From: a virus
Lineage: Duplodnaviria; Heunggongvirae; Uroviricota; Caudoviricetes
IMG/VR virus record: IMGVR_UViG_3300029715_000189
Strand: one strand, 5' to 3'
DNA length: 64,000 nucleotides
Shown: positions 9,101 through 64,000 of the stretch, piece by piece
Layout: each line of letters begins with the position of its first letter
Position numbering within the stretch: position 1 is the stretch's first letter
The notes under the pieces: generated by a model
Databases searched by the model: none
Seen by the model: the letters and a program-made list of their open reading frames with translations, nothing else
What the model was told of the DNA's origin: nothing
Made by a program: the position numbers and the translations under genes

Positions 9101-12100
9101 CTATAATTGATAAACTATATACAGGTAATGCCGATCTTCTTACTGAGAGAGAAAAAGATGTGTATGATAAATACAAACAAGATTTTGATGATTATGTATC
9201 GTCTTTGGGTGACAGTCCCGTTAATCTCATAAAATCATTATCTGAAAAGGCTGATAGGCTTACAAGTCCGAGATCTGTGTATGAGGATAATAAAGCTATT
9301 ATTGATATGGCTAAATCCAATTTGGAACCAGATCAAAGGAAGGAACTTGATGATGCTATTTCTTCGTATGTTGATATAATGAACAGACGGGACAAAGGGG
9401 AGAAAGTTGACGAAGATAAGCTTGCCGATTCGGTATTTACCATAGAAGATCTTGGCCAGGTTGGAAACATCACGGATCTCCTTCCTTATATCGAACAAAA
9501 CAGGATTATTGATAAAGGTCGTATTTCCGAATCTACGTTAAGTAATTTTGGGGAGGATGATGCTAATATAGATTCTCTTGTAAATGAATTAGACGAATCT
9601 GATAATACGCCGGGAGCCAATATAGATAGCGCCCAGAATCCAGAGACGTTGATGGTAAGAAGAATCTCCAATGACGGCAATGAAAGGTATGAAATTGCAG
9701 GTCTTAGAGCCGATAAATTTATATCTTCTATAAAATCATTGGTTCCTATTCAAATAAGCTCTGAAACGAACGCTAATGGCACTAAAAGGTATTCTCTTAA
9801 TATAGGTGGAGAAACGGCTACTATAATTGAATTGCCTTATCATGCGAGATGGTCTATAGACAAAGAATCGGCTCGTGTTCTTAACCGTTACACAGACGTG
9901 TCTATTCAGGACGTGGGTAATTCCTATTCTTTGGTTTATAAGCGTCTTGATTCAGATGAGTTGGTTCCGTACAGAACAGGTGTTGGATTCGGAGAGAATG
10001 AGGTAGATAAAATAGATCAGGAAGCATTATCTTCTTTGAAAAAAGGAGATAAGGTTAATCTCGAAATAGATGTAAATGATACCTATAATCAGTCTCTTTT
10101 TGCCGAATACAATGATGCTGTTCAGTCCGGCGATAAAAAAAGAATAGAATCTGCTGAGAATAAACTGGTGTCCAATATGGTTATCAAGGTCATGAGTGGG
10201 AACCGATTCGTTTCTGTTGTAAAAGCTGATACAGGAGGCATAGATGGTATAAGTAAAATAAGAAGAACGGCTTTCAACAAGTGGAAGAAGGATGCCGGCC
10301 GGTCGGCTACCATCGGCGTCGGCACGCATGTTGTTGCCCAGACCCTTCCCGGAAGACCGGTGTTTAACATGAAGGTGAACGGTCAAGGATATGGCCAGGT
10401 AGAAAATCTCCCCATTACCGAAAAAGGTGCTGAAAAAATATCTGATGTAGGATATGTATTAAATGGCAAAGTCGTGCTTAAGAACGGCTCTAAATACACA
10501 GGCTTCCCATTTGCTTATTCTATATTAAATGACAAGGGGAATAATTACAAAAATGTAAGAGTTCCGGTAGTCGTCATCAAAGGTAAAAACGGTCTTAATT
10601 ATCTTTTCCCAGTTAGCCTACGTTCTGTAGAATCAGAGGAAGGGCAGAAATGGATGTCTTTTATAGATATGCTGCTTGAATCTGGTGATTCTGAATTGCT
10701 ACAGATGGGTCAAGATGACATACAAGATCTTAATGCGTATCTAACCAAGTTAGGTCTTGATCCGGCTTCGTATCAAGTATCGTATTTGAATCCTATTTCA
10801 GGGCTTAGAAAAGCTCGTGAGGCTATAGAAAAATTATCTACGGTTCCTGATGTTGTTAAGTGGGTAGAAGATGAAAGCAGGAATGTGAAAGACATTGTGA
10901 CGTCTGAAGTAGAATCTGGAATAGATTTCGAAGGTGAGATGTTTGTCGCTCCTAAGATCAGGATTCAGTTTGGCAAATCATCTTCCAGACCTAAATCGCT
11001 TATAGAGGATGATCTTCCTTTCTCTGATGAGGGTAAGACCGTTACTTCTAAGGTAGAAGATGTGGAAGTTTATGAAGAGGAAATGCCAGAGGAAGGGGCT
11101 GCCCGGGAGACTCAGCCGGCGCCATTAGCTCAGCCGGCTCCTGCGGCACAAGCTACGCAGTCTTTACCTGGCAAGAAGCGTACCTCCAGGAAAAACTTCT
11201 CTCTTATGTTAAACGAAATAGAATCTCATATAGAAAAAGAAGGATTGCCGTCTTATGCTAATATTTTTGATTTTATAGCAAGGAAGATTGTAGGAGGTGA
11301 TTTGAGGTTTCTTCGTGAGAGAGGTAATCCTAAAAGCCTTAAGGAAGAAATGGGATTAGAACCTAAAGGAACAGTAGGTGATAAAATATCCACTCCTTCC
11401 AGTAAAGGTGGTAAGATCTTAGAAGAATACGTTTCTTGGCTTCGTTCTCAAACAGATCAGGTGGTGGTTGATTATGTTGGGCCAAGATCTGACGAACAAA
11501 TTATATCAGAGTTGAAAAACTTTTTGAAATATATTAATTTTGTTCCAAGCAAGGCTTTGAATTATTCTCTTAGAGTCAATGGCATGGATACCCTAAAAGA
11601 ATATGGCACAAAAGAGGAAGTAGAAAAAATGGAATCTGATATCAATAGTTTGGTTTCTAAAGTTTTGCCTACGGTGGATAATAAAACTGTAGAAGATGTT
11701 TCTACTGCAATAAAATCAAACAACTTGCCTGCCATATGGGAGCCCGTGGAAAGCCTTGATATGACAAACGAGGAAAAAATAGAGTTTTTGAATAACGTAG
11801 CAGATTTCCTTAGCGGCATACCAGAGCATGATGCTGTCGTGGAGTCTATAGAGTCAGAATCAGATAATATTTTAAATGATGGAAAAGAAGGAAGTGCAGA
11901 AGGCGGTGCAGTACGCACTGAGGAAGATGGCGATAAAAAGGGAGATGGAGAAGGCAAAGGACAATCCAGAACAAATGTCGAAGTTGAAAGAAATGTCGAA
12001 TTACCTGGATCTGAAGAAGGAAGAGTAGATAACTATAGGAAGAACGGAGATAAGTTCTCTGACATTGCTGAAGTTACTTTATGGCTACTTAGAAGGGCTG

Positions 12101-12806: not shown

Positions 12807-13337
12807 ATGAGAAGGAGATTTTTTAATGCTGCGGATAATTTTATGGGAGGATGTTATAATAAGTTATCTAATGAAGATATAAAAAGGCTTGGAGGAAAAA
12901 GACCTTATGTATGTCAGTTTAATAAAATTCATATACATATAGGGCCTGTATTAAAAGATCATGATTCCGATGTTAGTTACATAATGTTTGATAGTGATTG
13001 GAATTATGGTGGTTATGAATCTATGGTTTATCATCATAGCAATAATGGTATTTTTATATTAGGTGAAAACAAAATTGGTAACATAGAAGATCATATGCAA
13101 GATCTAACATATTGGTACGAATATGATCCAAGCATTAATGAAAATTATTGTTATTTTTATTATGAGGCTAATAACAGCGGAAATGCTATCAAGTTGAATG
13201 GTGAGTTTAGTAGTACCAGTACTGTTTTCAACATTCCCAGCTTGGAAGTCACCACTCTTCGTGATGGCAGTTTGAGTTTTCCGGAGATTTATATAGAAGG
13301 AGTTTGGGATCCGTCATTGTATAAGTCGGTTTTATAA
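12807..13337 (+). CDS. Small protein (about 176 aa) with an N-terminal MRRRFF motif, one of three MRRRF-family paralogs. Function unknown.
   Basis: AAGGAG lies 8 nt upstream of ATG 12807 (the track ORF 12798 starts at GTG). Genes A and B at 29.2-30.6 kb share the MRRRF N-terminus. Confidence 0.7.
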   Translation: MRRRFFNAADNFMGGCYNKLSNEDIKRLGGKRPYVCQFNKIHIHIGPVLKDHDSDVSYIMFDSDWNYGGYESMVYHHSNNGIFILGENKIGNIEDHMQDLTYWYEYDPSINENYCYFYYEANNSGNAIKLNGEFSSTSTVFNIPSLEVTTLRDGSLSFPEIYIEGVWDPSLYKSVL

Positions 13338-13468: not shown

Positions 13469-14701
13469 ATGAGATTAGTATATAAGTTCAACATAGGGCA
13501 AAATGAAAATATATCATCTTTGTGCAAGATTAGCAACAACTTGTACAACCAAGCATTGTATATTTTCAGAGAAACACTTTCTAAAGAAGATAAGTGGTTA
13601 TCCTATTTTGAACTTGATGATATCATGAAGAATACCAAGAACTTAGATGGAGACATTAATTACAGATTACTAAAGGCGCAATGTTCTCAACAAGTTCTTC
13701 GTATTCTTGATAAAAATATTAAAAGTTATTACAAATCGGTCCAAGATTACAAAAAACATCCAACTAAGTATAAAGAAAAACCTGGTCTTCCAAATTACAA
13801 AAAGAGAGGTTATGAGTTCAATTTGTATTACACGAGTCAGAGTTGCAAAATAAAAGATGGGAAAATAATCCTATCAAAAGATATTTCAATACCCATTCCT
13901 CAATATGAGAAGTATTCTGATTTGATAAAAGATTTCAAACAGATTAGAATAAAACCATTAGCATGTGGATATAAAATAGAAATCATTTATGAGGTAAAAG
14001 ATGCTGAAGTATCTAAAGGTAGAGAAGAGAAGATTGCTTCAATCGATTTAGGGATTGATAATCTTGCAACTCTTATCAGTGAAGATTTTACTGTTCTATT
14101 TAGTGGTAAATTTGTTAAATCATACAATAAGCTATTCAATAAGACATTAGCCAAATTAAATAGTATCAAAGATTTACAAAAGATAAAAGGAACAACAAGA
14201 CGAATAAAGAAATTATATTATGATAGAGAACAGTACATAGAAGATGTCTTTCATAAAATCAGTGGAAAGATAGTTAATTTACTTATCGATTCCAAGATAA
14301 CAAAATTAATTGTAGGCTACAACAAGGGATGGAAACAAAATGTAAATATAGGTAAAAAGAATAATCGAAAGTTTACCCAAATCCCTTTTGCGAGATTGGT
14401 GAGTTACTTAGAATATAAATGTGAATTATCTGGTATTGAAATAGTTATTCATGAAGAGTCATATACTTCAAAATGTGATTCATTAGCATTTGAGAAGATA
14501 GGAAAACATGAAAACTATTTAGGAAAGAGGAAGAACCGAGGATTGTTTCAATCCTCGGTAGGAAAACTCATAAATGCAGACGTAAATGGAGCATTAAACA
14601 TTATGAGAAAAGTAGTCGGTGATTCCTGTGAATCAATTCGTAGGATAATCGATAGAGGGTTATTGTTTAACCCGGTGAGGATTACGAATGTATTTTGTTA
14701 A
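13469..14701 (+). CDS. tnpB: TnpB-like RuvC nuclease (IS200/IS605 OrfB / IS1341 type) of 410 aa. The RuvC triad is intact but the canonical CxxC...CxxC zinc finger is missing. No tnpA lies adjacent.
   Basis: The N-terminus YKFNIGQNE...LYNQAL matches the TnpB N-terminal pattern. RuvC-I is SIDLGIDN, RuvC-II is IVIHEESYTSKC, RuvC-III is INADVNGALNI. The ZF segment is replaced by a Cys-free stretch (DSLAFEKIGKHENYLGKRKNRGLFQSSVGK). Confidence 0.85.
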   Translation: MRLVYKFNIGQNENISSLCKISNNLYNQALYIFRETLSKEDKWLSYFELDDIMKNTKNLDGDINYRLLKAQCSQQVLRILDKNIKSYYKSVQDYKKHPTKYKEKPGLPNYKKRGYEFNLYYTSQSCKIKDGKIILSKDISIPIPQYEKYSDLIKDFKQIRIKPLACGYKIEIIYEVKDAEVSKGREEKIASIDLGIDNLATLISEDFTVLFSGKFVKSYNKLFNKTLAKLNSIKDLQKIKGTTRRIKKLYYDREQYIEDVFHKISGKIVNLLIDSKITKLIVGYNKGWKQNVNIGKKNNRKFTQIPFARLVSYLEYKCELSGIEIVIHEESYTSKCDSLAFEKIGKHENYLGKRKNRGLFQSSVGKLINADVNGALNIMRKVVGDSCESIRRIIDRGLLFNPVRITNVFC

Positions 14702-19911: not shown

Positions 19912-20079
19912 ATGAATATAGCACACGAATCTAAATCGAATAAAACCCCCTTGTATTTAATAGGAGAGTTGATTGGCGTACCGAATACGGTTATGGACTC
20001 AGCATTGCATGAACTGAAAGATAGAATAGACAAAGACCCTGAATGGGTGATTATATACCACTTTACACCAAAAGCGTAA
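19912..20079 (+). CDS. Small protein of about 55 aa (MNIAHESKS...IIYHFTPKA). Its C-terminus is encoded by the conserved dispersed repeat.
   Basis: First ATG in the track ORF 19795..20079. It ends in ...YHFTPKA* inside repeat copy R1. Confidence 0.45.
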   Translation: MNIAHESKSNKTPLYLIGELIGVPNTVMDSALHELKDRIDKDPEWVIIYHFTPKA

Positions 20080-20098
20080 AGTAATACACATTTATACG
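20047..20098 (+). repeat. Dispersed repeat copy R1 (GTGATTATATACCACTTTACACCAAAAGCGTAAAGTAATACACATTTATACG).
   Basis: Near-identical copies lie at 22011-22057 (same orientation) and 59699-59749 (inverted). Confidence 0.7.
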
Positions 20099-20152: not shown

Positions 20153-21357
20153 TCAAAGGATTCTTTTTTCCGATTTACGGATGATGTTAAAAGCACCATT
20201 GATATCAGCATTAATTGTCTTACCAGAAGAGGTTTTAAACAATCCTCGTTTAATCCTTCTTCCTTTGTAAGATTCATGTTTGCAAATCCGTTCATTATCT
20301 AAAAAGCTACATTTTGAAGTATAAGATTCTTCAACGATCTTAACATTAATACCTTCTAATGTAGCTTTATACGATATCATACTGATAAACGAATTAAAAG
20401 GAATAGATACAAAGTTCTGATTATTACGCTTTCCAATATTGATCTCTTGTTTCCGGCATTTGTTATGACCGATTATGATCGTATTAATACCATTGGAAAC
20501 TACGTGATTAACCAATATCCTACTTGCCTTATGCAGATAATCTTTGATCTTGTTATTCCTTTTGTTGGTTAATGACCTGATTTGTTTTGAAATTTGTTTG
20601 TTATCTTTTAATTTAGATTTTAAGAATGCTAACCTTTTGTTATAATATTGGTTAATAGACTTTAGTGGCCTACCATTGATGATAAAACAAGAACCGGTGT
20701 TTGAAACACAAGATGCTAAATTATCCAATCCTATGTCGATGCCAAGATAGTTCCCATTATCGGACATAAGATTCTTTTCCTTCTTATTGTAAACTATTTC
20801 AAGAACAATATACCCATTCTTAGGAATGAATCTAAGTTGTTGAATATTTTGCTTGTTAGTTCTTGTTGTAAAGGAAAACTGTTTTGGTAACTTAACAATG
20901 CCTTGTTTTATCCATTTTTGAGAAAAAGCATTTGTTGCAAAAAAACAGCAGGAAACAAACCACCCTTGTTGAGATACCTTGGCATTCTTACTTCCTCAGA
21001 ATACTCACCTCTATTCTTTTTATTAAAGAGATTGAAGAAAGATTTAAAGTTTCTATCAACCATCATCAACACTTGTTGAGCAACCGGTGCTGGTAAAGCA
21101 CGATAGTCAACATCATTTTCTGTTCTTAACTTCTTTTCGAGAGAATAGTAGTTTAGGTACTTATACTTTACAGTATTATCATCCTTGTATTGAAAATAAT
21201 ACTGTCTAACAACATATAACCCTTTATTGTATAAGTTTTTACACTTATGCAATAGATCATAAGGTTCATTGTAATAAACAGAACTTGGTTTGATCGTATG
21301 TTGTTCGACTAATCTCATGACATAAATATAGAAATTATTATTTATATATGAAAACAA
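20153..21357 (-). pseudogene. tnpB: Second TnpB-like gene (TnpB#2), split into an N-terminal ORF (20908-21357) and a C-terminal ORF (20153-20767 plus an upstream extension). The break is a -1 frame change at a T7 run. It may be a programmed frameshift, a pseudogene, or a homopolymer sequencing error.
   Basis: The C-terminal ORF carries GIDIGLDN, VEESYTSKC and NADINGAFNI. About 55% of residues match TnpB#1 over the RuvC region by eye, and the zinc finger is absent here too. The frames switch within minus-strand U UUU UUG (plus-strand A-run 20939-20945). A -1 slip gives ...PAVFFATNAFSQKWIKQG..., which is colinear with TnpB#1 ...NLYYTSQSCKIKDG... Confidence 0.8.
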
Positions 21358-21564
21358 ATTGGCGTATTTGTGGTGTAAAGTTGTATATAATTACCTAAAG
21401 ATGTTAAAAATTGGCTCGAATCTTTACCCAAGATCTGAACCTATTTTTTCAATACCAGGCCCGATGCGATTTTAACGTATCGGGTTTTTATTTTAATTCA
21501 TATTGTTTTATTTTAAATCTAATTAATTCATGAATGTCGTACATTTGTTGAAAAAGTATTCTAT

Positions 21565-21792: not shown

Positions 21793-22007
21793 CCGTAGAA
21801 GAGTTAGCCAGTAAAAGATACGGTGGCGAATTTGTTTTTATGTTTGGCCATCTTGAAGGTAGAACAAGATTCGTTTTTGAATGCTTTGATCCCAGACCTG
21901 ATCACGAAGGTAAAAACACTTATATGGTTTCCTATTTTGAAAAGGGACTTCATAGAAGAGATGTGGTAGATGTACCGTGTTATATGAATGTTTTGCAAAA
22001 ATCGTAG
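21789..22007 (+). CDS. Hypothetical protein of 72 aa. Repeat copy R2 follows its stop immediately.
   Basis: Translationally coupled to the previous ORF. Confidence 0.45.
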   Translation: MTVEELASKRYGGEFVFMFGHLEGRTRFVFECFDPRPDHEGKNTYMVSYFEKGLHRRDVVDVPCYMNVLQKS

Positions 22008-22010
22008 GTA

Positions 22011-22057
22011 GTTATATACAACTTTACACCAAAAGCGTAAAACAATATACATTTTTA
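22011..22057 (+). repeat. Dispersed repeat copy R2 (AGTTATATACAACTTTACACCAAAAGCGTAAAACAATATACATTTTTAT).
   Basis: It aligns with R1 and R3. Here the ...IYNFTPKA* reading frame sits just after a TAG stop. Confidence 0.7.
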
Positions 22058-25500: not shown

Positions 25501-28500
25501 TCGAGCAGGAAAAGATTTATACAGAACAGATGGAAAAGTGGGATGCTGAAAATTCGGAACTGGAATTTAGCGAAAGTTATGCCACAAGAATGGAATCCAT
25601 ATACAAAAAGGCTGAAGAAGAATTAGGGTATCCGGTTTCTCAAACAACCAAAGAATACCTTAATGCTCTATCCAGGCAAAAACGGATATTGAGGCAGCCT
25701 TTTATTGATAGCGGTGGTAATTTTGATGAGGTTGCCTATTTAAAAAGCAGCAATTACGAAGAAGAAGGACTGCTTCGTAAACAACGTAAGGAAGCAGCTT
25801 CAGAATACATATATGTGGGAACCAGGAGAGTGGAAAAAACCGGCGACCAACTTAAGATGGCTAAAGAAATACAAGCTATAAATGAAGTTTGGAGAAAGGA
25901 ATCAAATAATGTTACCAATGCCGTATCAGAATCGTTTTTGCAAAAATTAAGAACGATTCAGAGCGAGTCGGGAGGAGAAGCTGCGCTGAAGACACTTATG
26001 TTGGGAGGTCACCTGTCGTTCAATGATCGGTTTTGGAATGAAGTAGAATCGGAACAGTCGGCGCGTACCGGATCAAATAACAAGGCTTCGTATCTTAAAA
26101 TGGCGCATGATATCATTAGTTCTACGACAAGTGATAGAGATGCGACTGACGTGGATTCGATTGTGAAAGATATAGAAAAAAATAAGGCCATTATCAAGGA
26201 AATAATCGGAAACAACCGAGATGTGGCTGATATCGGAGAAATTAACGAAGCGACATTTACCTCATCTGAAAGAGATGCTTTTAGGGCCGCATCTGAAGCT
26301 ATTGAAGCTGATTACGCTATCTTAATAGATTATGTTAAGATGGTGGGTCTTGAAGATATTGATAAGTACCTTACTAAAAGCAGTAAGGCCGAAAACGAAG
26401 TAAATCAGTCTTATTTAAATGCTCTTGCTGACTCCAAGGAAGTGGAATGGAAGTTCGTACAACGTCATACTACGGCGAAGAAAGCAAAAAGGATTCAGGC
26501 TTTAAGGGATAAGCTGTTTAAGGCTGCTGATAACCGATATCTGTTTACCGTATCTGAAACCAACTACCTGTCAGAAAAGCTTGGTATAAGCAAAGAATTA
26601 GACGGTAGAGATTTCAGGAATGCTGTTAATGCTAAGATGGCCAGCTTGTTTTTAAATAATACAAGAGAAGAGGGCATAGAAGAGGCCAATGCTATTGTTA
26701 ATGAATTTGCCAGGAGCCAGGTCTTTTCGTACTATAAACGCATGGCGCCTACCGGATATGCGGCCATGATCGACAAAATAGGTCGAGGTGAGATAGATGT
26801 GGCGCAGATGGTTAAGGACGTACAAAACGGTACATCCACCCAAGATTATGGCATGGACATATCGTACCTGTCTTTCGATCCTGCAAGGGCATGGGTGGCT
26901 GAATCTGAAGCCGAAAATAGCGGCCGTAATCCCGATTATGTAAAAGATCATGGGTATGGTCATCGCATGCCTAAGAAAAGCCTGTATCGTGATGAATCGT
27001 ATTTCAATGACTTTGGTATCAAGTATGATGCTGACGGTAATGAAGTTGCTACTAAAAACGTAGAGCAGTGGAATATGATTCAAAAACTCAAGGAAATAAA
27101 AAGACAATCACTTGATCTATACGAAGAGCAGAGCCCGAACCTATATGCTATTCCACAGATATCAAAACAAGACATAGAACGTGTAGAAGGATTGGGTATT
27201 AACTTCAAAAATACGGTTCGTAATTTTGTATCAGATCTGTGCCTGGACAGAGTAGACGATTCTCTATACGGTAAAACCAGGCAAGGGGAAGTGTATGACC
27301 CGGAAGACAGACTTAGGTCTATACCTAAATACTACATATATGAATTGGAGAACCAAGATGATGTATCTCACGATTTTGGCTACTCTTATTCGATGCTTAT
27401 GATGCAGTCATCGTTATACAATGAAAAGCAGAAGTCTATAGAGCTCGCTCAAGGACTGGAGCAGATGTTACTGAATAAGCAATTTGAAGGCGGGAAGAAA
27501 GCTGAAGCGACTCAAGCATATCAGATGTTTAGGGACTTCTTCAACGATCATTATTATGGCATTAGGATGAACACCAAAAAACTTACGGTGAACATCGGAG
27601 GATATACGGTAGACCTTACAAGAATTATGATGGCTGTTGAAAGGTTTATGTCGGTCATGAACTTGGCACTGTCTCCGTTTGTGGCAGTTACCGGCGCCCT
27701 GACAGGTCATATCAACCTCATCATGGAATCTGCCGTAGGACAGTATATAAGCAAAGACTCCCTTAAATACGCATCGGCTGAGTTTTCACGTCTTGCGCCA
27801 TCTTGTATAGCAGAAACCGGAGACATAGACAGGAAAAGCAAATTATATGTCATAGGTGAGAGAATGGGGATATTCAATATCCGAAATCGTATGTATGGTG
27901 CCGGATACAATAGAGCGGCCAGGACCTTAATGCGTTCGCCTATGTATGCTTTTATGGAAATCCTGAACTACCCTCTTGATCCGCAGGTTATGATTGCTAC
28001 TATGGACAATGTTCGTTATTACAAAGGCCGGTTCTACACGTTCCAAGATTTCAAGATGGAAAAAGAACGCAATAAAGAACAGAGTACCATAAAAAGAGAA
28101 TGGAACGCATTAAAAGATCGTACTTTATGGAGTATGGTAGACGTTGTGGATGGAAAGGTGGTTGTAAAGCCGGGATCGGGTGTTACTGTTGAGGAAGTTG
28201 AAACCCAGATGGCTATAACCAGGAATCAAGTCCGTAGCTTGTCGCAGATATGTAACGGATCTTTGAATGAAGAAAACCGAACTGCCGCATCGCGCAACTG
28301 GATAGCCAGGTTCATGACCGCCCACCGAGGCTGGCTGGTGCTGGCAGCTCAACGTCTGTGGAAAAGACGTGGCTTCAATTTCCAGACAATGCAAGAAGAG
28401 GAAGGGTTGTTAATTACGTTAAAGAATATGATAGCCAAAACATTTAGCCTGGCTTCCGAGTCTGGTATGAAAAACATCATAGATGCCTGGAACGAAAATA

Positions 28501-29142: not shown

Positions 29143-29185
29143 ACCGGTTCTCAGTCAGAGATGATAGGGAACCGGTTTCTTTTAT
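29143..29185 (+). terminator. Hairpin ACCGGTTC...GAACCGGT with an 8 bp stem, followed by TTCTTTTAT. Putative terminator or attenuator upstream of gene A.
   Basis: Read directly. It lies 137 nt after the giant-gene stop. Confidence 0.45.
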
Positions 29186-29219: not shown

Positions 29220-29840
29220 ATGAGACGAAGATTTCAAATAGGGATGGGGGGGGTAAATCCCTCGCTTATAATCAATAAAGGCATATATATCCAACATGTA
29301 GACGGAGGATTATATACGAAAGAAAATTGGTCTAATAAAGGATATTCCAATAATCTATGCAATGGAATAGCTCTTGTAGATAAAGTGTGTTTTGTTATAG
29401 CCACCGAATATATTGGCACATTTCGTTGGGGTAAGGATGGAGAAATAGACAATATATTTGCACAAGATAGTTCTAATATGGGAACCATTAAAAAGGATTA
29501 TTGGGGGCGTGAAAATCAGAATGCGTATCTTGAATATGATACCAGTAATACAGATTACGCTTTTAATAAAGCTAATAGCTATTTATTTAAAAATGGTCAA
29601 AATGGATATGTAGGTGGCGCCGGAGAGTTTTTTTTGATATCATTGTATGCGAATGAAATAAACGAATGCCTTTTAATGGTAGGAGGTACGATAATGAGTA
29701 ATAGAATGTGGACATCCACTCGAAATACAAAATTTTCCTATTCGTGGTATTATGATATAAACATCCAAGGAGATCATTTGGATACAGGTTCAAGGAGTAG
29801 TTCACATTATGTCCGTCCTTTTACTGAATTAATTTTATGA
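29220..29840 (+). CDS. MRRRF-family protein A (about 206 aa from ATG 29220). A G8 tract forms codons 10-12 (ATG GGG GGG GTA), and the gene is in frame in this assembly.
   Basis: The frame is continuous with track ORF 29133..29840. Its N-terminus MRRRFQIGMGGV is shared with gene B and the 12807 gene. Confidence 0.7.
   Translation: MRRRFQIGMGGVNPSLIINKGIYIQHVDGGLYTKENWSNKGYSNNLCNGIALVDKVCFVIATEYIGTFRWGKDGEIDNIFAQDSSNMGTIKKDYWGRENQNAYLEYDTSNTDYAFNKANSYLFKNGQNGYVGGAGEFFLISLYANEINECLLMVGGTIMSNRMWTSTRNTKFSYSWYYDINIQGDHLDTGSRSSSHYVRPFTELIL
29246..29253 (+). repeat. Homopolymeric G8 tract inside the 5' coding region of gene A.
   Basis: Counted directly: gggatGGGGGGGGtaaat. Confidence 0.9.
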
Positions 29841-29844
29841 AATT

Positions 29845-30581
29845 ATGAGAAGAAGATTTGAAAATAATGCTAAACTATATGAGTATAAGATAGTTAGCGA
29901 TTGTATAGGGGGGGGGTAATCGTAGAAGGAAAGAAAGTAGGCACCATTCCACAGGGTGGGCAATTTATCTTTCTGTCTAAAAAAGAACGGCTGGATTCCA
30001 TAAGTGTCCAAGGCGGTGTTCCAATGGAAGATAGGCAAGAGATCGATAGTCAGGTTGATACGACAGAGGAATTGCTTGAACAGGATTCGGTGGTTCTTGC
30101 TATTGCTTTAACAACCTCTCCTTATTATGGATTTGGAGTAAGTGTGATAGTACCTGATGAGTTTACGCTAAGAACAACCAATAGGATTAATAGAACCTTT
30201 TTAATAACAAGCTTTACCCCACCTGCTGCTATATACGGTGTAAACTTTGGTGATCCTATTGTCCTTAATTATGATAGTTACCAATATGAGATGCCAGATC
30301 TTGTAATTGATGGACCTCATGATAGAATAGTTAGGGCAGATCCTGATCTTACTTGGGCTGTAAGATGTACAGACGCCGACTTTACACCTTTGCCATATCC
30401 AGAATCATGGTCTGGCCAAGGTTTAAATTCTATGTTCTTATCAGAAATGAAACGTCTTGCTCCTGGTGATCATCATGTATCATATACAGCTTATATTAAT
30501 TTGGACTTGATAGATGATGACGGAAGTAAAGTTCATACTGAATACCTGATATTAGAAAAAACACTTAATTTTACGATATGA
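29845..30581 (+). CDS. MRRRF-family protein B. The ATG 29845 frame (MRRRFENNAKLYEYKIVSDCIGGG) stops right after the G9 tract. The long ORF (226 aa, TTG 29901..30581) lies two nucleotides later in a different frame. Inserting one extra G would fuse the two.
   Basis: Codon-by-codon reading: with 9 G the upstream frame reads GGG GGG GGG TAA. With 10 G it continues GTA ATC GTA GAA into the long ORF. Confidence 0.6.
29908..29916 (+). repeat. Homopolymeric G9 tract at the junction of the MRRRF leader and the long ORF of gene B.
   Basis: Counted directly: tgtataGGGGGGGGGtaatc. Confidence 0.9.
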
Positions 30582-30584
30582 CAA

Positions 30585-30623
30585 CAGTCCCCAACCGTAC
30601 GCCTATTGTATGGTTGGGGACTG
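30585..30623. terminator. Strong hairpin with a 12 bp perfect stem (CAGTCCCCAACC...GGTTGGGGACTG) between the convergent plus and minus gene blocks. Putative bidirectional terminator.
   Basis: Read directly. The U-tracts are weak, but the stem is very stable. Confidence 0.5.
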
Positions 30624-30670
30624 TTGTGGTTACCATCTTTTCTTGTATAAGCAGAACATGAAATAAGTTT

Positions 30671-47933: not shown

Positions 47934-48396
47934 CAGTTTTCTTTTCTCCCAATTTTTCTACGCCTTTTCGCAGATCGTATTTAAACACTTCAATGATTTT
48001 CGTTTCTGCAATAGACTCGCAATTCCAGTCTCCCAACGTACCCTGCATACCTTTAGTCAACACAGCTTCGGCGTCTTTAGGATTGCCGGCCTGGACATAC
48101 ATATAGCATGGCGTTTTCTTTTCTTTACCTTTCTTTTCATTCAGTGTAATGTAATTCACCTTACACTTATACCAGTACTCAGCTTCTCCGTTGAAGAAGA
48201 TTTCCGACACTTTAATAGGATTTATTTTAATAATGTCGAACACTTGAAATAAACCCTTGAAAATCTCTAAAGATCTTGATTCTGCCTCTGTATAAGACAA
48301 GGCATCTACCAAATACTTTTCAGTTACTTTCTTTTTTTTGCCGTTCTCGATATTATCAATCTCGGCTTTTACCGTAATTTCAAACCAGCGATTCAT
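47926..48396 (-). CDS. Hypothetical protein of 156 aa.
   Basis: ORF. Confidence 0.55.
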   Translation of the reverse strand: MNRWFEITVKAEIDNIENGKKKKVTEKYLVDALSYTEAESRSLEIFKGLFQVFDIIKINPIKVSEIFFNGEAEYWYKCKVNYITLNEKKGKEKKTPCYMYVQAGNPKDAEAVLTKGMQGTLGDWNCESIAETKIIEVFKYDLRKGVEKLGEKKTDE

Positions 48397-56900: not shown

Positions 56901-57144
56901 TTTCTGATTTTGTTTTATTTTTTTCTTTGTTTTTTCTATCTTCTATAGAAGATGATAATAACATTATCTTTTCCATGTTACTTTTTGACTGTAAAAAAGA
57001 ATCGCATTTCATTACCACTACCACCTTCTTAAGTTCCCCATTATCGTATAGCGATACACGCATCATGTTTTGTACCTCGTCCACTATCAGACCTGGAGTA
57101 GTCTTAGCCATTTTGCGTAGCTTATTATACTCCGGTCTTTCCAT
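56851..57144 (-). CDS. Hypothetical basic protein of 97 aa. Overlaps its neighbour by 50 nt.
   Basis: ORF with a Lys/Asn-rich C-terminus. Confidence 0.4.
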   Translation of the reverse strand: MERPEYNKLRKMAKTTPGLIVDEVQNMMRVSLYDNGELKKVVVVMKCDSFLQSKSNMEKIMLLSSSIEDRKNKEKNKTKSENEQNNKNKRRNRKKTG

Positions 57145-59357: not shown

Positions 59358-59698
59358 GAACCGACATGCCAAAACCCAAAACTTAACTTGATGAATAAAA
59401 TAGATTGACAAAAATACTATTCTAATTGGCGATTATATACTATTTTACACCATACATGTTGTAAAACATACATATGTTATTTAATTTCATATTCTTCTTT
59501 TCTAACTTTGTTTTACTCAATCGAATCAATAAGTCCCTTGTTTCGGACAAAACGGTTGAGTAAAAGAGGTCTTTGATATAAGGTTCCATCTTGAAAACGT
59601 AAGATGGGTAAAATCAAAAACGTTTTTGGTAAAAGAATCCGGCGATCTCACTTTTGAGCAACCGGTAGAGGGTATTGGTGATACCCAGTATGATACTT

Positions 59699-61106: not shown

Positions 61107-61343
61107 CCTACAGAATGCTGTTTTAAAACGCTGATCTGTTGAATTTTGTTGGAAACCCCTACAAAATGCTGTTTAAAACGCTGATCTGTTGAATTTTGTG
61201 GGAAACCCCTACAGAATGCTGTTTTAAAACGCTATAGGTCTTGATTTTACAAAATGCTGTTTTAAAACGCTATAAGTCTTGATTTTGTTGGAAACCCCTA
61301 CAAAAATGCTGTTTTAAAACGCTGATCTGTTGAATTTTGTTGG
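61107..61343 (+). repeat. Tandem array of 5 direct repeats of about 41-51 bp, iteron-like. Each unit contains the palindrome GTTTTAAAAC. There are two unit subtypes (…GCTGATCTGTTGAATTTTG… and …GCTATARGTCTTGATTTTG…).
   Basis: Units at 61107, 61158, 61208, 61249 and 61297 were read directly. There are no unique spacers, so this is not a CRISPR array. Confidence 0.85.
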
Positions 61344-61440
61344 TGGGAAGTGTCCTCCCCCCTCCCCCTCTCCAACCCCGGCTAATCCTCCGGCTTTCCG
61401 CATAGAACCTGCGCTCTCGGCCTCACTACCGGCCTACGGA
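61344..61440. other. GC-rich structured element. A C-tract (CCTCCCCCCTCCCCCTCTCCAACCCC, G-quadruplex-capable on the minus strand) is followed by the hairpin GCGCTCTC...GAGAGCGC.
   Basis: Read directly. The composition is strikingly atypical for this genome. Confidence 0.6.
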
Positions 61441-62858: not shown

Positions 62859-63404
62859 TTACTGCTGGTTGCTTTCATGTGCGGAATATTCACTTACACA
62901 CTTTGCCACAGTGCGAATAGAATAAGATTTGATCTTAACAGCCACATAAGTAGCTTTATACTCGTCGTTTTCTTTTATCAACCATCTAGCGCTTTTTTTG
63001 GTCCCCAATGATTCGGCAGTAGTAAAACCAAATGATTTATATTCGCTACCGTAAACCACATTCTCAGCGCACCAATCAGCCGTTTTAGCCTCAACGCCTT
63101 TCTCTTTGTCTGCATTGGTATCCTTATACACTTTAGAGTATAAAGCAAATTTAACAAATGTATCGTCAACTTTCGGTAACATTTGGCTACACACAGCTAC
63201 CAGGCGCTTTTTATCCTTGGCGAGGGCTGCAACCTTTACGGCGCATTCTGCCGGTATTTCCAAGGCCTTGCAAATAGACTTAAGATCAGCTCCGTTAGCA
63301 AATAAAGCGTTGTATAACTTTACGGCACCTACCAAATTTGCAGCATTTTCTTTGATAACAGCATTCTGTAGTTTGTTTACATTTTTTTTCGTAATCATAT
63401 CCAA
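62859..63404 (-). CDS. Hypothetical protein of 181 aa. The outermost gene on the minus strand.
   Basis: ORF. ATG with an A-rich upstream region. Confidence 0.6.
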   Translation of the reverse strand: MDMITKKNVNKLQNAVIKENAANLVGAVKLYNALFANGADLKSICKALEIPAECAVKVAALAKDKKRLVAVCSQMLPKVDDTFVKFALYSKVYKDTNADKEKGVEAKTADWCAENVVYGSEYKSFGFTTAESLGTKKSARWLIKENDEYKATYVAVKIKSYSIRTVAKCVSEYSAHESNQQ

Positions 63405-63876: not shown

Positions 63877-63877
63877 T

Positions 63878-64000
63878 CCCACATCACATAAACATTTTCT
63901 CACATATCCCTTTTTTTTCATATCCCACATCACATAAACATTTTCTCACATATCCCTTTTTTTTCATATCCCACATCACATAAACATTTTCTCACATATC
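63878..64000 (+). repeat. 46 bp tandem repeat (CCCACATCACATAAACATTTTCTCACATATCCCTTTTTTTTCATAT) with 2.7 copies visible. It runs off the window end.
   Basis: Units at 63878, 63924 and 63970. Confidence 0.9.

Follow-up and report, generated by a model that had tools for sequence, protein, structure and literature searches.

In Haemophilus, Neisseria and Campylobacter, simple sequence repeat (SSR) loci carry poly-G or poly-C homopolymers near the 5′ ends of genes for surface structures, which are switched ON or OFF by frameshift and which, as independent loci, generate combinatorial diversity. Contingency loci have also been described in phages. Fletchervirus phages of Campylobacter are reported to carry hypermutable poly-G tracts of 7–11 G in the genes of their receptor-binding proteins (RBPs; bioRxiv 10.1101/2025.10.21.683753, summarising Sorensen et al. 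2021, Cell Rep 35:109214), and T2/T4 and other coliphages also have contingency loci (Gomez, Barrick and Waters 2025, bioRxiv 10.1101/2025.10.21.683753). Here we describe a locus of this kind in a 64-kb stretch of DNA (64,000 nucleotides, 38% G+C; hereafter the window) from the IMG/VR virus record IMGVR_UViG_3300029715_000189, which belongs to an epsilon crAss-like phage (Epsilonunovirus). Two adjacent genes at 29220–30581, which we call A and B, each carry a poly-G tract in their 5′ part, and comparison with related genomes supports slipped-strand phase variation of both. The mechanism itself is already known from bacterial contingency loci, Fletchervirus and T2/T4. What is new is the phage group, since in a full-text literature search no publication connected crAss-like phages to phase variation at homopolymers.

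The Fletchervirus system is similar in that G tracts lie in structural or host-interaction genes, several per genome, with ON and OFF subpopulations set by tract length and a host whose surface is phase-variable. Fletchervirus, however, is a myovirus of Campylobacter, whereas the phage studied here is a crAss-like podovirus of Bacteroidia, and the proteins concerned share no sequence similarity. Here, moreover, the tracts come with an MRRR tag and a G(n)TAA(A)TC context, an RBP role is putative, and the evidence is comparative metagenomics rather than experiment. With T2/T4 and the other coliphages, the locus would share short homopolymers in phage genes, reversible frameshifts and bet-hedging diversity. 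The coliphage loci, in contrast, are mostly runs of at least 6 in many gene classes of cultured, deep-sequenced phages, whereas here an AT-rich genome has a few exceptionally long G runs (8–11), concentrated where small accessory genes of a single class have their 5′ ends. Compared with the bacterial SSR loci, the difference is that the present locus is virus-borne, so that switching would take place during phage genome replication and the phenotype would be heterogeneity of virions or infections, not variation of a cell surface. Two additional features find no explanation in the known systems, namely the MRRR tag that the genes share and the G(n)TAA(A)TC context common to their tracts.

Gene A (29220–29840, + strand) encodes, by ORF (open reading frame) reading, 206 aa with the N-terminus MRRRFQIGMGG (MRRRFQIGMGGVNPS...). 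Its tract of eight G (29246–29253, + strand, codons 9–11) is in frame and the gene is ON in the window, as an earlier reading made without database searches (the sequence-only reading) had stated. Gene B begins with an ATG at 29845, five bases past the stop of gene A. Its 5′ part is a 24-codon leader (MRRRFENNAKLYEYKIVSDCIGGG; 29845–29919, + strand) in which codons 22–24 hold a tract of nine G (29908–29916, + strand), directly followed by a TAA at 29917–29919 that leaves the gene OFF. The body of gene B, 221 codons plus a stop (29916–30581, + strand), is read in the −1 frame with respect to the leader. If tract B gains one G, or loses two, the leader is fused with the ORF ending at 30581, and the product is an all-beta protein of 245 aa; the earlier claim that gene B is OFF and that a single G would fuse it to the 226-aa ORF at 29901–30581 is thereby borne out. 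The two tracts are the sole G or C runs of at least 7 in the window, and both fall within the first 70 nt of adjacent genes that start with MRRRF. In dinucleotide-preserving shuffles there were on average 0.68 G8 matches and 8 of 100 shuffles reached three, so that the count alone is only mildly unusual. It is position and codon choice that make the tracts non-random: GGG is the rarest glycine codon in the phage (13%), and none of the 42 Gly-Gly pairs in long ORFs is written GGG-GGG.

To compare tract lengths we fetched 80 related loci with the C-terminus of the upstream structural protein (217 exist in IMG/VR), plus all 77 contigs with the gene B leader. Among 59 relatives, tract A was G5 in 46, G6 in six, G8 in three, and G4 and G9 in two each; G5 and G8 are ON, and G4, G6 and G9 are OFF. 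For the main subtype of gene B (type 1), in which G10 or G7 is ON and G9 is OFF, the leader-bearing contigs comprised eight with G8, 22 with G9, 24 with G10, four with a G11-like tract and four with an interrupted 10-nt tract that is in frame. The interrupted alleles (G5AG4, G6AG3, G7AG2 and G5TG4) all total 10 nt and all keep the frame, a pattern that fits slippage; one further allele, G8AGG, is out of frame. A second subtype of B with a diverged body (type 2) is OFF at G8 (four contigs) and ON at G9 (four contigs). A gain or loss of one G in tract A or B leads to a stop after 18–44 codons. On neighbour-joining trees, parsimony gives at least 12 length changes in tract A and at least 10 in tract B, and B alleles separated by only 0–3 differences in 663 nt have tracts of G8, G9 or G10 or an interrupted one. 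Since tract length differs between near-identical genomes, A and B are found ON or OFF in all four combinations: ON/ON in 10–11 genomes, ON/OFF in 10, OFF/ON in 3–4 and OFF/OFF in 9–10. The pattern of one gene ON and one OFF, proposed in the sequence-only reading, thus describes the window correctly but is not a rule.

This variation is specific to the tracts. Control runs in conserved coding sequence were invariant, with A7 at 26176 unchanged in 74 of 74 contigs, A7 at 56918 in 30 of 30 and A8 at 48332 in 12 of 12, and a G7 run inside the 2140-aa structural gene of some relatives was likewise constant (7/7), indicating that the tract polymorphism is not general assembly noise. An independent Logan assembly of run ERR912072 contained an identical 3,621-nt stretch in which G8 and G9 were both reproduced. 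The OFF alleles, in turn, keep their downstream sequence. All eight OFF alleles of gene A with G6 or G9 have the 195 codons downstream of the tract intact. In a first set of gene B alleles, 18 of 18 OFF alleles keep the intact 221-codon body, and in a larger set all 34 type-1 OFF alleles with complete downstream sequence keep 221–223 codons. None of the 168 substitution events in the B body is a nonsense change, where neutrality would predict about 4.7, in a count that left out two alleles of 216 and 220 codons. Both genes thus have three attributes of an SSR contingency locus: a hypermutable homopolymer of about seven or more G or C in the 5′ coding region that sets expression, ON and OFF lengths among close relatives in which control repeats are stable, and a reading frame that is intact in OFF alleles, with gene A carrying other lesions in other genomes. 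Taken together, the length polymorphism, the intact OFF ORFs, the recent changes, the choice of GGG codons and the independent states make slipped-strand phase variation well supported across these related genomes. The poly-G switch suggested by the sequence-only reading therefore stands, with ON and OFF lengths both common; rather than being absent from all relatives, the tracts are present in them with variable length.

In the mechanism that we propose, the polymerase would slip on a G run during phage DNA replication, and progeny genomes would come to differ by ±1, sometimes 2, G. The resulting shift of frame would yield either the full protein (G5 or G8 for A, G10 for B) or the early stop after 18–44 codons described above. 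Such a length change would be heritable and reversible, so that a phage population would always be a mixture of A+/− and B+/− particles. The genes A and B, which are small, accessory and unrelated to each other, end the late (virion) block, and the switched proteins are probably exposed, host-interacting accessory proteins of the virion or of infection. We think it likely, from the comparison of sequences, that the two tracts are selected slipped-strand switches of these genes, forming a contingency locus for bet-hedging. This would imply a high slippage rate within one population, reversibility of the changes and selection for switching, as well as functions for the two proteins that may include one in adsorption.

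Several observations weigh against selected switching. All comparative data are consensus metagenome assemblies. By parsimony, the tract rate exceeds that of point substitution only about 20–40 fold per tract, which is ordinary for homopolymers of 8–10 nt. Ratios of non-synonymous to synonymous polymorphism (pN/pS) of roughly 0.9 in A and 1.3 in B are also expected from relaxed selection, and sequence and fold searches with A and B found no homology to RBPs. In addition, gene A often carries other lesions, including T7 and T9 frameshifts, internal deletions and chimeras, and tract B is followed by a 6-nt spacer and a hairpin that fit the geometry of a −1 frameshift signal. One alternative is that A and B are dispensable genes in decay, non-essential and under relaxed selection, with loss alleles gathering at homopolymers as the most mutable sites and no selected, reversible switch. 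The pN/pS values are indeed near 1 (0.92 for A; 1.30 for B overall and 0.82 for OFF-only alleles), roughly 40% of the copies of A and half of those of B are OFF, with both OFF in the 9–10 genomes counted above, and many relatives lack entire cassettes or have others in their place. Gene A shows other breaks as well. It contains a T8 run (29628–29635, + strand, codons E-F-F-L), a second frameshift-prone tract that the sequence-only reading did not see, and among 56 relatives this run is T7 in five, T8 in 44 and T9 in seven, with T7 and T9 (12/56) truncating A at 137–147 aa; further breaks fall in a G5 run, and there are in-frame deletions as well as A/B and B′/A chimeras (B′ being an alternative cassette described below). 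Deleted and chimeric forms of A are frequent in the population, so that some of its variation resembles decay. Gene B does not follow this pattern. Its OFF alleles lack secondary lesions and nonsense changes, it is full-length in homologs down to 32–56% identity, and a pN/pS of 4.5 in ON alleles indicates diversifying rather than neutral change. Pure G tracts are kept in diverged subtypes despite the strong bias against GGG, and among near-identical sequences the lengths are centred on ON and ON minus one, which implies fast back-and-forth change. We consider decay an unlikely account of the locus as a whole.

Another alternative concerns what happens during expression. Programmed −1 frameshifting is found in phage structural genes, for example lambda G/GT, and Ig-like domains are appended by frameshift. 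Gene B resembles such genes in having its body in the −1 frame, a homopolymeric slippery stretch, a 6-nt spacer, a hairpin and a product with an immunoglobulin (Ig)-like fold. The G9 form of gene B might then not be truly OFF: some ribosomes would slip by −1 on G GGG GGG at the TAA with help from the hairpin, or RNA polymerase would add a G, and full-length B would be made at a reduced, set level together with a 24-aa peptide. A −1 shift on G9 does land exactly in the frame of the 221-codon body, and an RNA hairpin (29923–29979, + strand; ΔG −20.2 kcal/mol, z −3.2, 1/200 shuffles) starts 6 nt past the tract, so that a slippery heptamer, a spacer in the range of 5–9 nt and a stable structure are all present. 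The commonest OFF allele is ON minus one G in both B subtypes (G9 in type 1, G8 in type 2), the sole state that a −1 shift could rescue. Conservation and covariation among homologs, however, are not seen. Tract B ranges from G8 to G11, whereas programmed sites are conserved in sequence, and the hairpin is retained without covariation in type-1 alleles but absent from type-2 alleles that have a G8 or G9 tract. The in-frame G10 alleles are equally common and need no shift, the G8 alleles of eight contigs would need +1 or −2, and the OFF alleles of gene A have no comparable structure (z −0.7); to our knowledge, pure G heptamers are also not among the classical efficient slippery sites. Recoding as the explanation of the G9 state thus seems to us distinctly improbable, and the hairpin could be a −1 frameshifting stimulator or incidental. 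Least probable by far is that tract B is truly G10, that both genes are ON and that the variation between contigs is sequencing or assembly error. Long G runs are error-prone on some platforms and all data are assemblies, but the same contigs show no variation in coding A7, A8 and G7 runs, errors would have to affect about half of the contigs, the G8, G9, G10, G11 and interrupted alleles give a coherent frame pattern, and the independent assembly returned the same G8 and G9. Selected slipped-strand switching therefore remains our preferred reading of the locus.

The genome in which the locus lies is closely related to csAssE-Sib (OR575929), which a 6-kb query matches at 95% nucleotide identity across 84% of its length, and the gene order of the window matches that of csAssE-Sib. 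This near-identity and synteny place the window in Epsilonunovirus, in a classification taken from PMC11054128. The available part of that paper gives csAssE-Sib as a 151-kb Epsilonunovirus (epsilon crAss-like) phage of human gut origin, names Bacteroides, Parabacteroides and Porphyromonas as the hosts of epsilon crAss-like phages predicted from CRISPR spacers, and makes no mention of homopolymer phase variation (PMC11054128). Genes A and B form the end of the late (+ strand) block, directly after the gene for a 2140-aa virion structural protein (PHROG match), in agreement with their earlier placement at the distal end of the structural block. Upstream of gene A, a stem-loop with a U-rich stretch (UUUCUUUUAU after the stem) at 29143–29176 on the + strand (ΔG −19.6 kcal/mol, z −3.8; 0/200 shuffles fold equally well) is likely the intrinsic terminator of the structural gene, and this terminator-like structure sets the A–B pair apart as a separate small unit. 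Downstream, the unit is closed by a bidirectional terminator, a near-perfect hairpin with 20-bp arms (inverted repeat I5, 30581–30627; ΔG −38.9 kcal/mol, z −7.2) that sits between the convergent late (+) and early (−) gene blocks. The hairpin is kept in relatives, where it served as the landmark of the locus.

Between these borders, the locus at 29220–30581 is a cassette site in relatives (L002–L081), occupied by A and B, by A and B′ (149 aa), by B or B′ alone, or by other content. The alternative cassette B′ stands in place of B in csAssE-Sib and in many relatives. Public proteins at the locus (P0181, P0182, P0126 and P0127) include in-frame deletions of A as well as chimeras of the B′-A and A-B types, a sign of frequent recombination at the cassette site.

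The protein encoded by gene B is a member of a small family that occurs only in these phages, in which the distant homologs are also of 245 aa; together with a confident structure model, these homologs mark B as a genuine gene. An N-terminal domain of about 60 residues is conserved in the family (MRRR[FY]..N..KLYEY.I.SNC.GG.V.V.G..VGT.P...GGVP), and tract B encodes the Gly-Gly(-Gly) of this domain. Within the family G22 and G23 hardly vary, so that the glycines specified by the tract are structurally conserved. An AlphaFold2 model of B is confident and shows a three-domain Ig-like beta-sandwich with the MRRRF tag disordered. A fold search with this model returned only generic Ig, FN3 and transglutaminase-barrel matches, the viral matches being uninformative, and a PEGA-like identity of the N-terminal domain found no support in Pfam even at E values up to 1. 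Homologs of gene A are confined to the same phage clade. Its AlphaFold2 model is unusable, with a predicted local distance difference test (pLDDT) score of 35, and the match of A to Pfam PF07603 (Lcl_C/DUF1566, C-type-lectin-like), at E 0.46 and 11.2 bits, falls short of the cut-off of 34.9 bits. Sequence searches of Pfam, PHROGs and PDB with A, B, B′ and a third MRRRF gene, C, returned nothing significant. The suggestion of the sequence-only reading that the genes encode receptor-binding or host-range determinants is not upheld by these results, given the generic Ig-like fold of B and the poor model of A. The RBP described for the clade is another gene, encoding a C-type lectin protein diversified by a diversity-generating retroelement (DGR) at 43.8–45.9 kb of csAssE-Sib, about 60 kb from the A–B locus (PMC11054128).

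In the body of gene B, 77 of 221 codons vary, and the changes are mostly non-synonymous and dominated by transitions. Among near-identical phages the variable codons cluster at about 144–182 and 195–217, and their pattern is not of the DGR type. We rejected gene B as a DGR target, as there is no template repeat/variable repeat (TR/VR) pair or reverse transcriptase (RT) within the window and B changes mainly by transitions, with no specificity for A. The DGR described for the same clade diversifies a host-interaction protein, and in gene B, too, amino-acid changes are in excess; unlike the DGR, the locus studied here would rely on length slippage and not on mutagenic retrohoming, with no TR/VR or RT in the window and no A-specific substitutions in B (Babkin et al. 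2024, PMC11054128).

The sequence-only reading had also grouped A, B and the gene at 12807 as paralogs of an MRRRF family. The shared start is confirmed, as a six-frame scan of the window finds MRRRF opening three ORFs only, A, B and gene C (12807–13337, + strand, 176 aa). Paralogy, in contrast, was rejected: in pairwise blastp of A, B, C and B′ only residues 1–7 match, the MRRRF(EN) tag, and no similarity was detected among A, B and C beyond the first 5–7 residues. By this comparison the four proteins differ and merely start with the same N-terminal tag. A G tract is absent from gene C (its glycines read GGA GGA). Directly after MRRR it has a T6 run (12819–12824, + strand), and among 80 relatives this run is T6 in 72, T7 in six and T5 in two, with T5 and T7 shifting the frame; all three MRRRF genes thus have a variable homopolymer in their 5′ part (first 25 codons). 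Starts of the form MRRR[FYL] occur on otherwise unrelated small late-block genes, at 29220, 29845 and 12807 in the window and at 11286, 12018 and 40030 in contig L220, which correspond to 63285, 64017 and 92029 in csAssE-Sib. Distant B homologs keep the tag as MRRRL, MRRRS or MRRST. Docking, packaging and translation are guesses as to its role.

Tracts A and B also share the context AT(R)G(n)TAA(A)TC, as had been noticed from the near-identical surroundings of the two runs. A scan of csAssE-Sib covering the genome except about 2 kb found a sole G run of at least 7, a G11 at 63256–63266 (11257–11267 in L220) that is surrounded by TATATATG(n)AATAATCC and is located 19 nt upstream of a gene for an MRRR-tagged, Gly-rich protein of 240 aa. 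In relatives (L300–L376) this tract is G7 in two, G8 in three, G9 in 11 and G10 in 10, most with TATATA(T)G(n)TAATCC, so that the motif G(n)TAA(A)TC is common to it and to tracts A and B. The tract, which is outside the window, lies 16–19 nt before the ATG of the 240-aa gene and looks like a promoter or 5′-untranslated region (5′-UTR) length switch, similar in this respect to the promoter tracts of Neisseria and Bordetella. The shared elements could point to a dedicated, modular switch, in which a portable 5′ module (the MRRR tag with the G(n)TAA(A)TC tract) would sit on several unrelated, fast-evolving accessory virion proteins, namely A, B with its subtypes and the 240-aa Gly-rich protein with its 5′-UTR tract. 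Such a switch would counter the phase-variable capsules of Bacteroidia, possibly graded by −1 frameshifting on the ON-minus-one alleles, and would, if real, produce a combinatorial mix of particles in each burst. We offer this as a tentative and rather doubtful extension of the switch reading. As separate observations, two further variable G tracts occur in the early region (− strand) of some relatives, one near 10800 in L082–L118 (G6–G10, between an AAGGAG motif and the next ATG) and one near 10680 in L089, L090 and L101 (G6, G8 or G9, within a small ORF).

Elsewhere in the window there are two genes of the TnpB/IS605-OrfB type, one at 13469–14701 (+ strand), directly after gene C, and one at 20153–21357 (− strand) that is split into two ORFs. 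The best genome matches for TnpB are only 34–43% identical, to archaea and clostridia, and are uninformative on the host. A 51-nt repeat is found at 20046–20096 and 22007–22057, with an inverted copy at 21368–21397 that overlaps the 3′ end of the upstream TnpB fragment and a weaker copy (67% identical) at 59428–59478. Towards the end of the window, a non-coding AT-rich stretch (61122–61362 and 63877–63968) contains four tandem copies of a unit of about 50 nt as well as a tandem duplication of 46 nt that is perfect; every copy includes a T8 run, and the stretch may serve as an origin or in regulation.

Among the viruses of the human gut, crAss-like phages are the most abundant, and they persist beside Bacteroidia whose surfaces vary constantly. 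The known answers on the phage side are DGRs and host-range mutations. The presence of switching at the A–B locus is directly checkable, as the gut metagenome reads that already exist allow a count of tract lengths. It would also bear on how these genomes are annotated, since ORFs at such loci that appear frameshifted or truncated in metagenome-assembled phages, such as the public calls of 221 and 226 aa, are probably switch states and not errors or pseudogenes. If our reading is true, ON/OFF switching of accessory proteins by poly-G tracts would be a second and cheaper route of diversification in the same phages, one that is both heritable and reversible.

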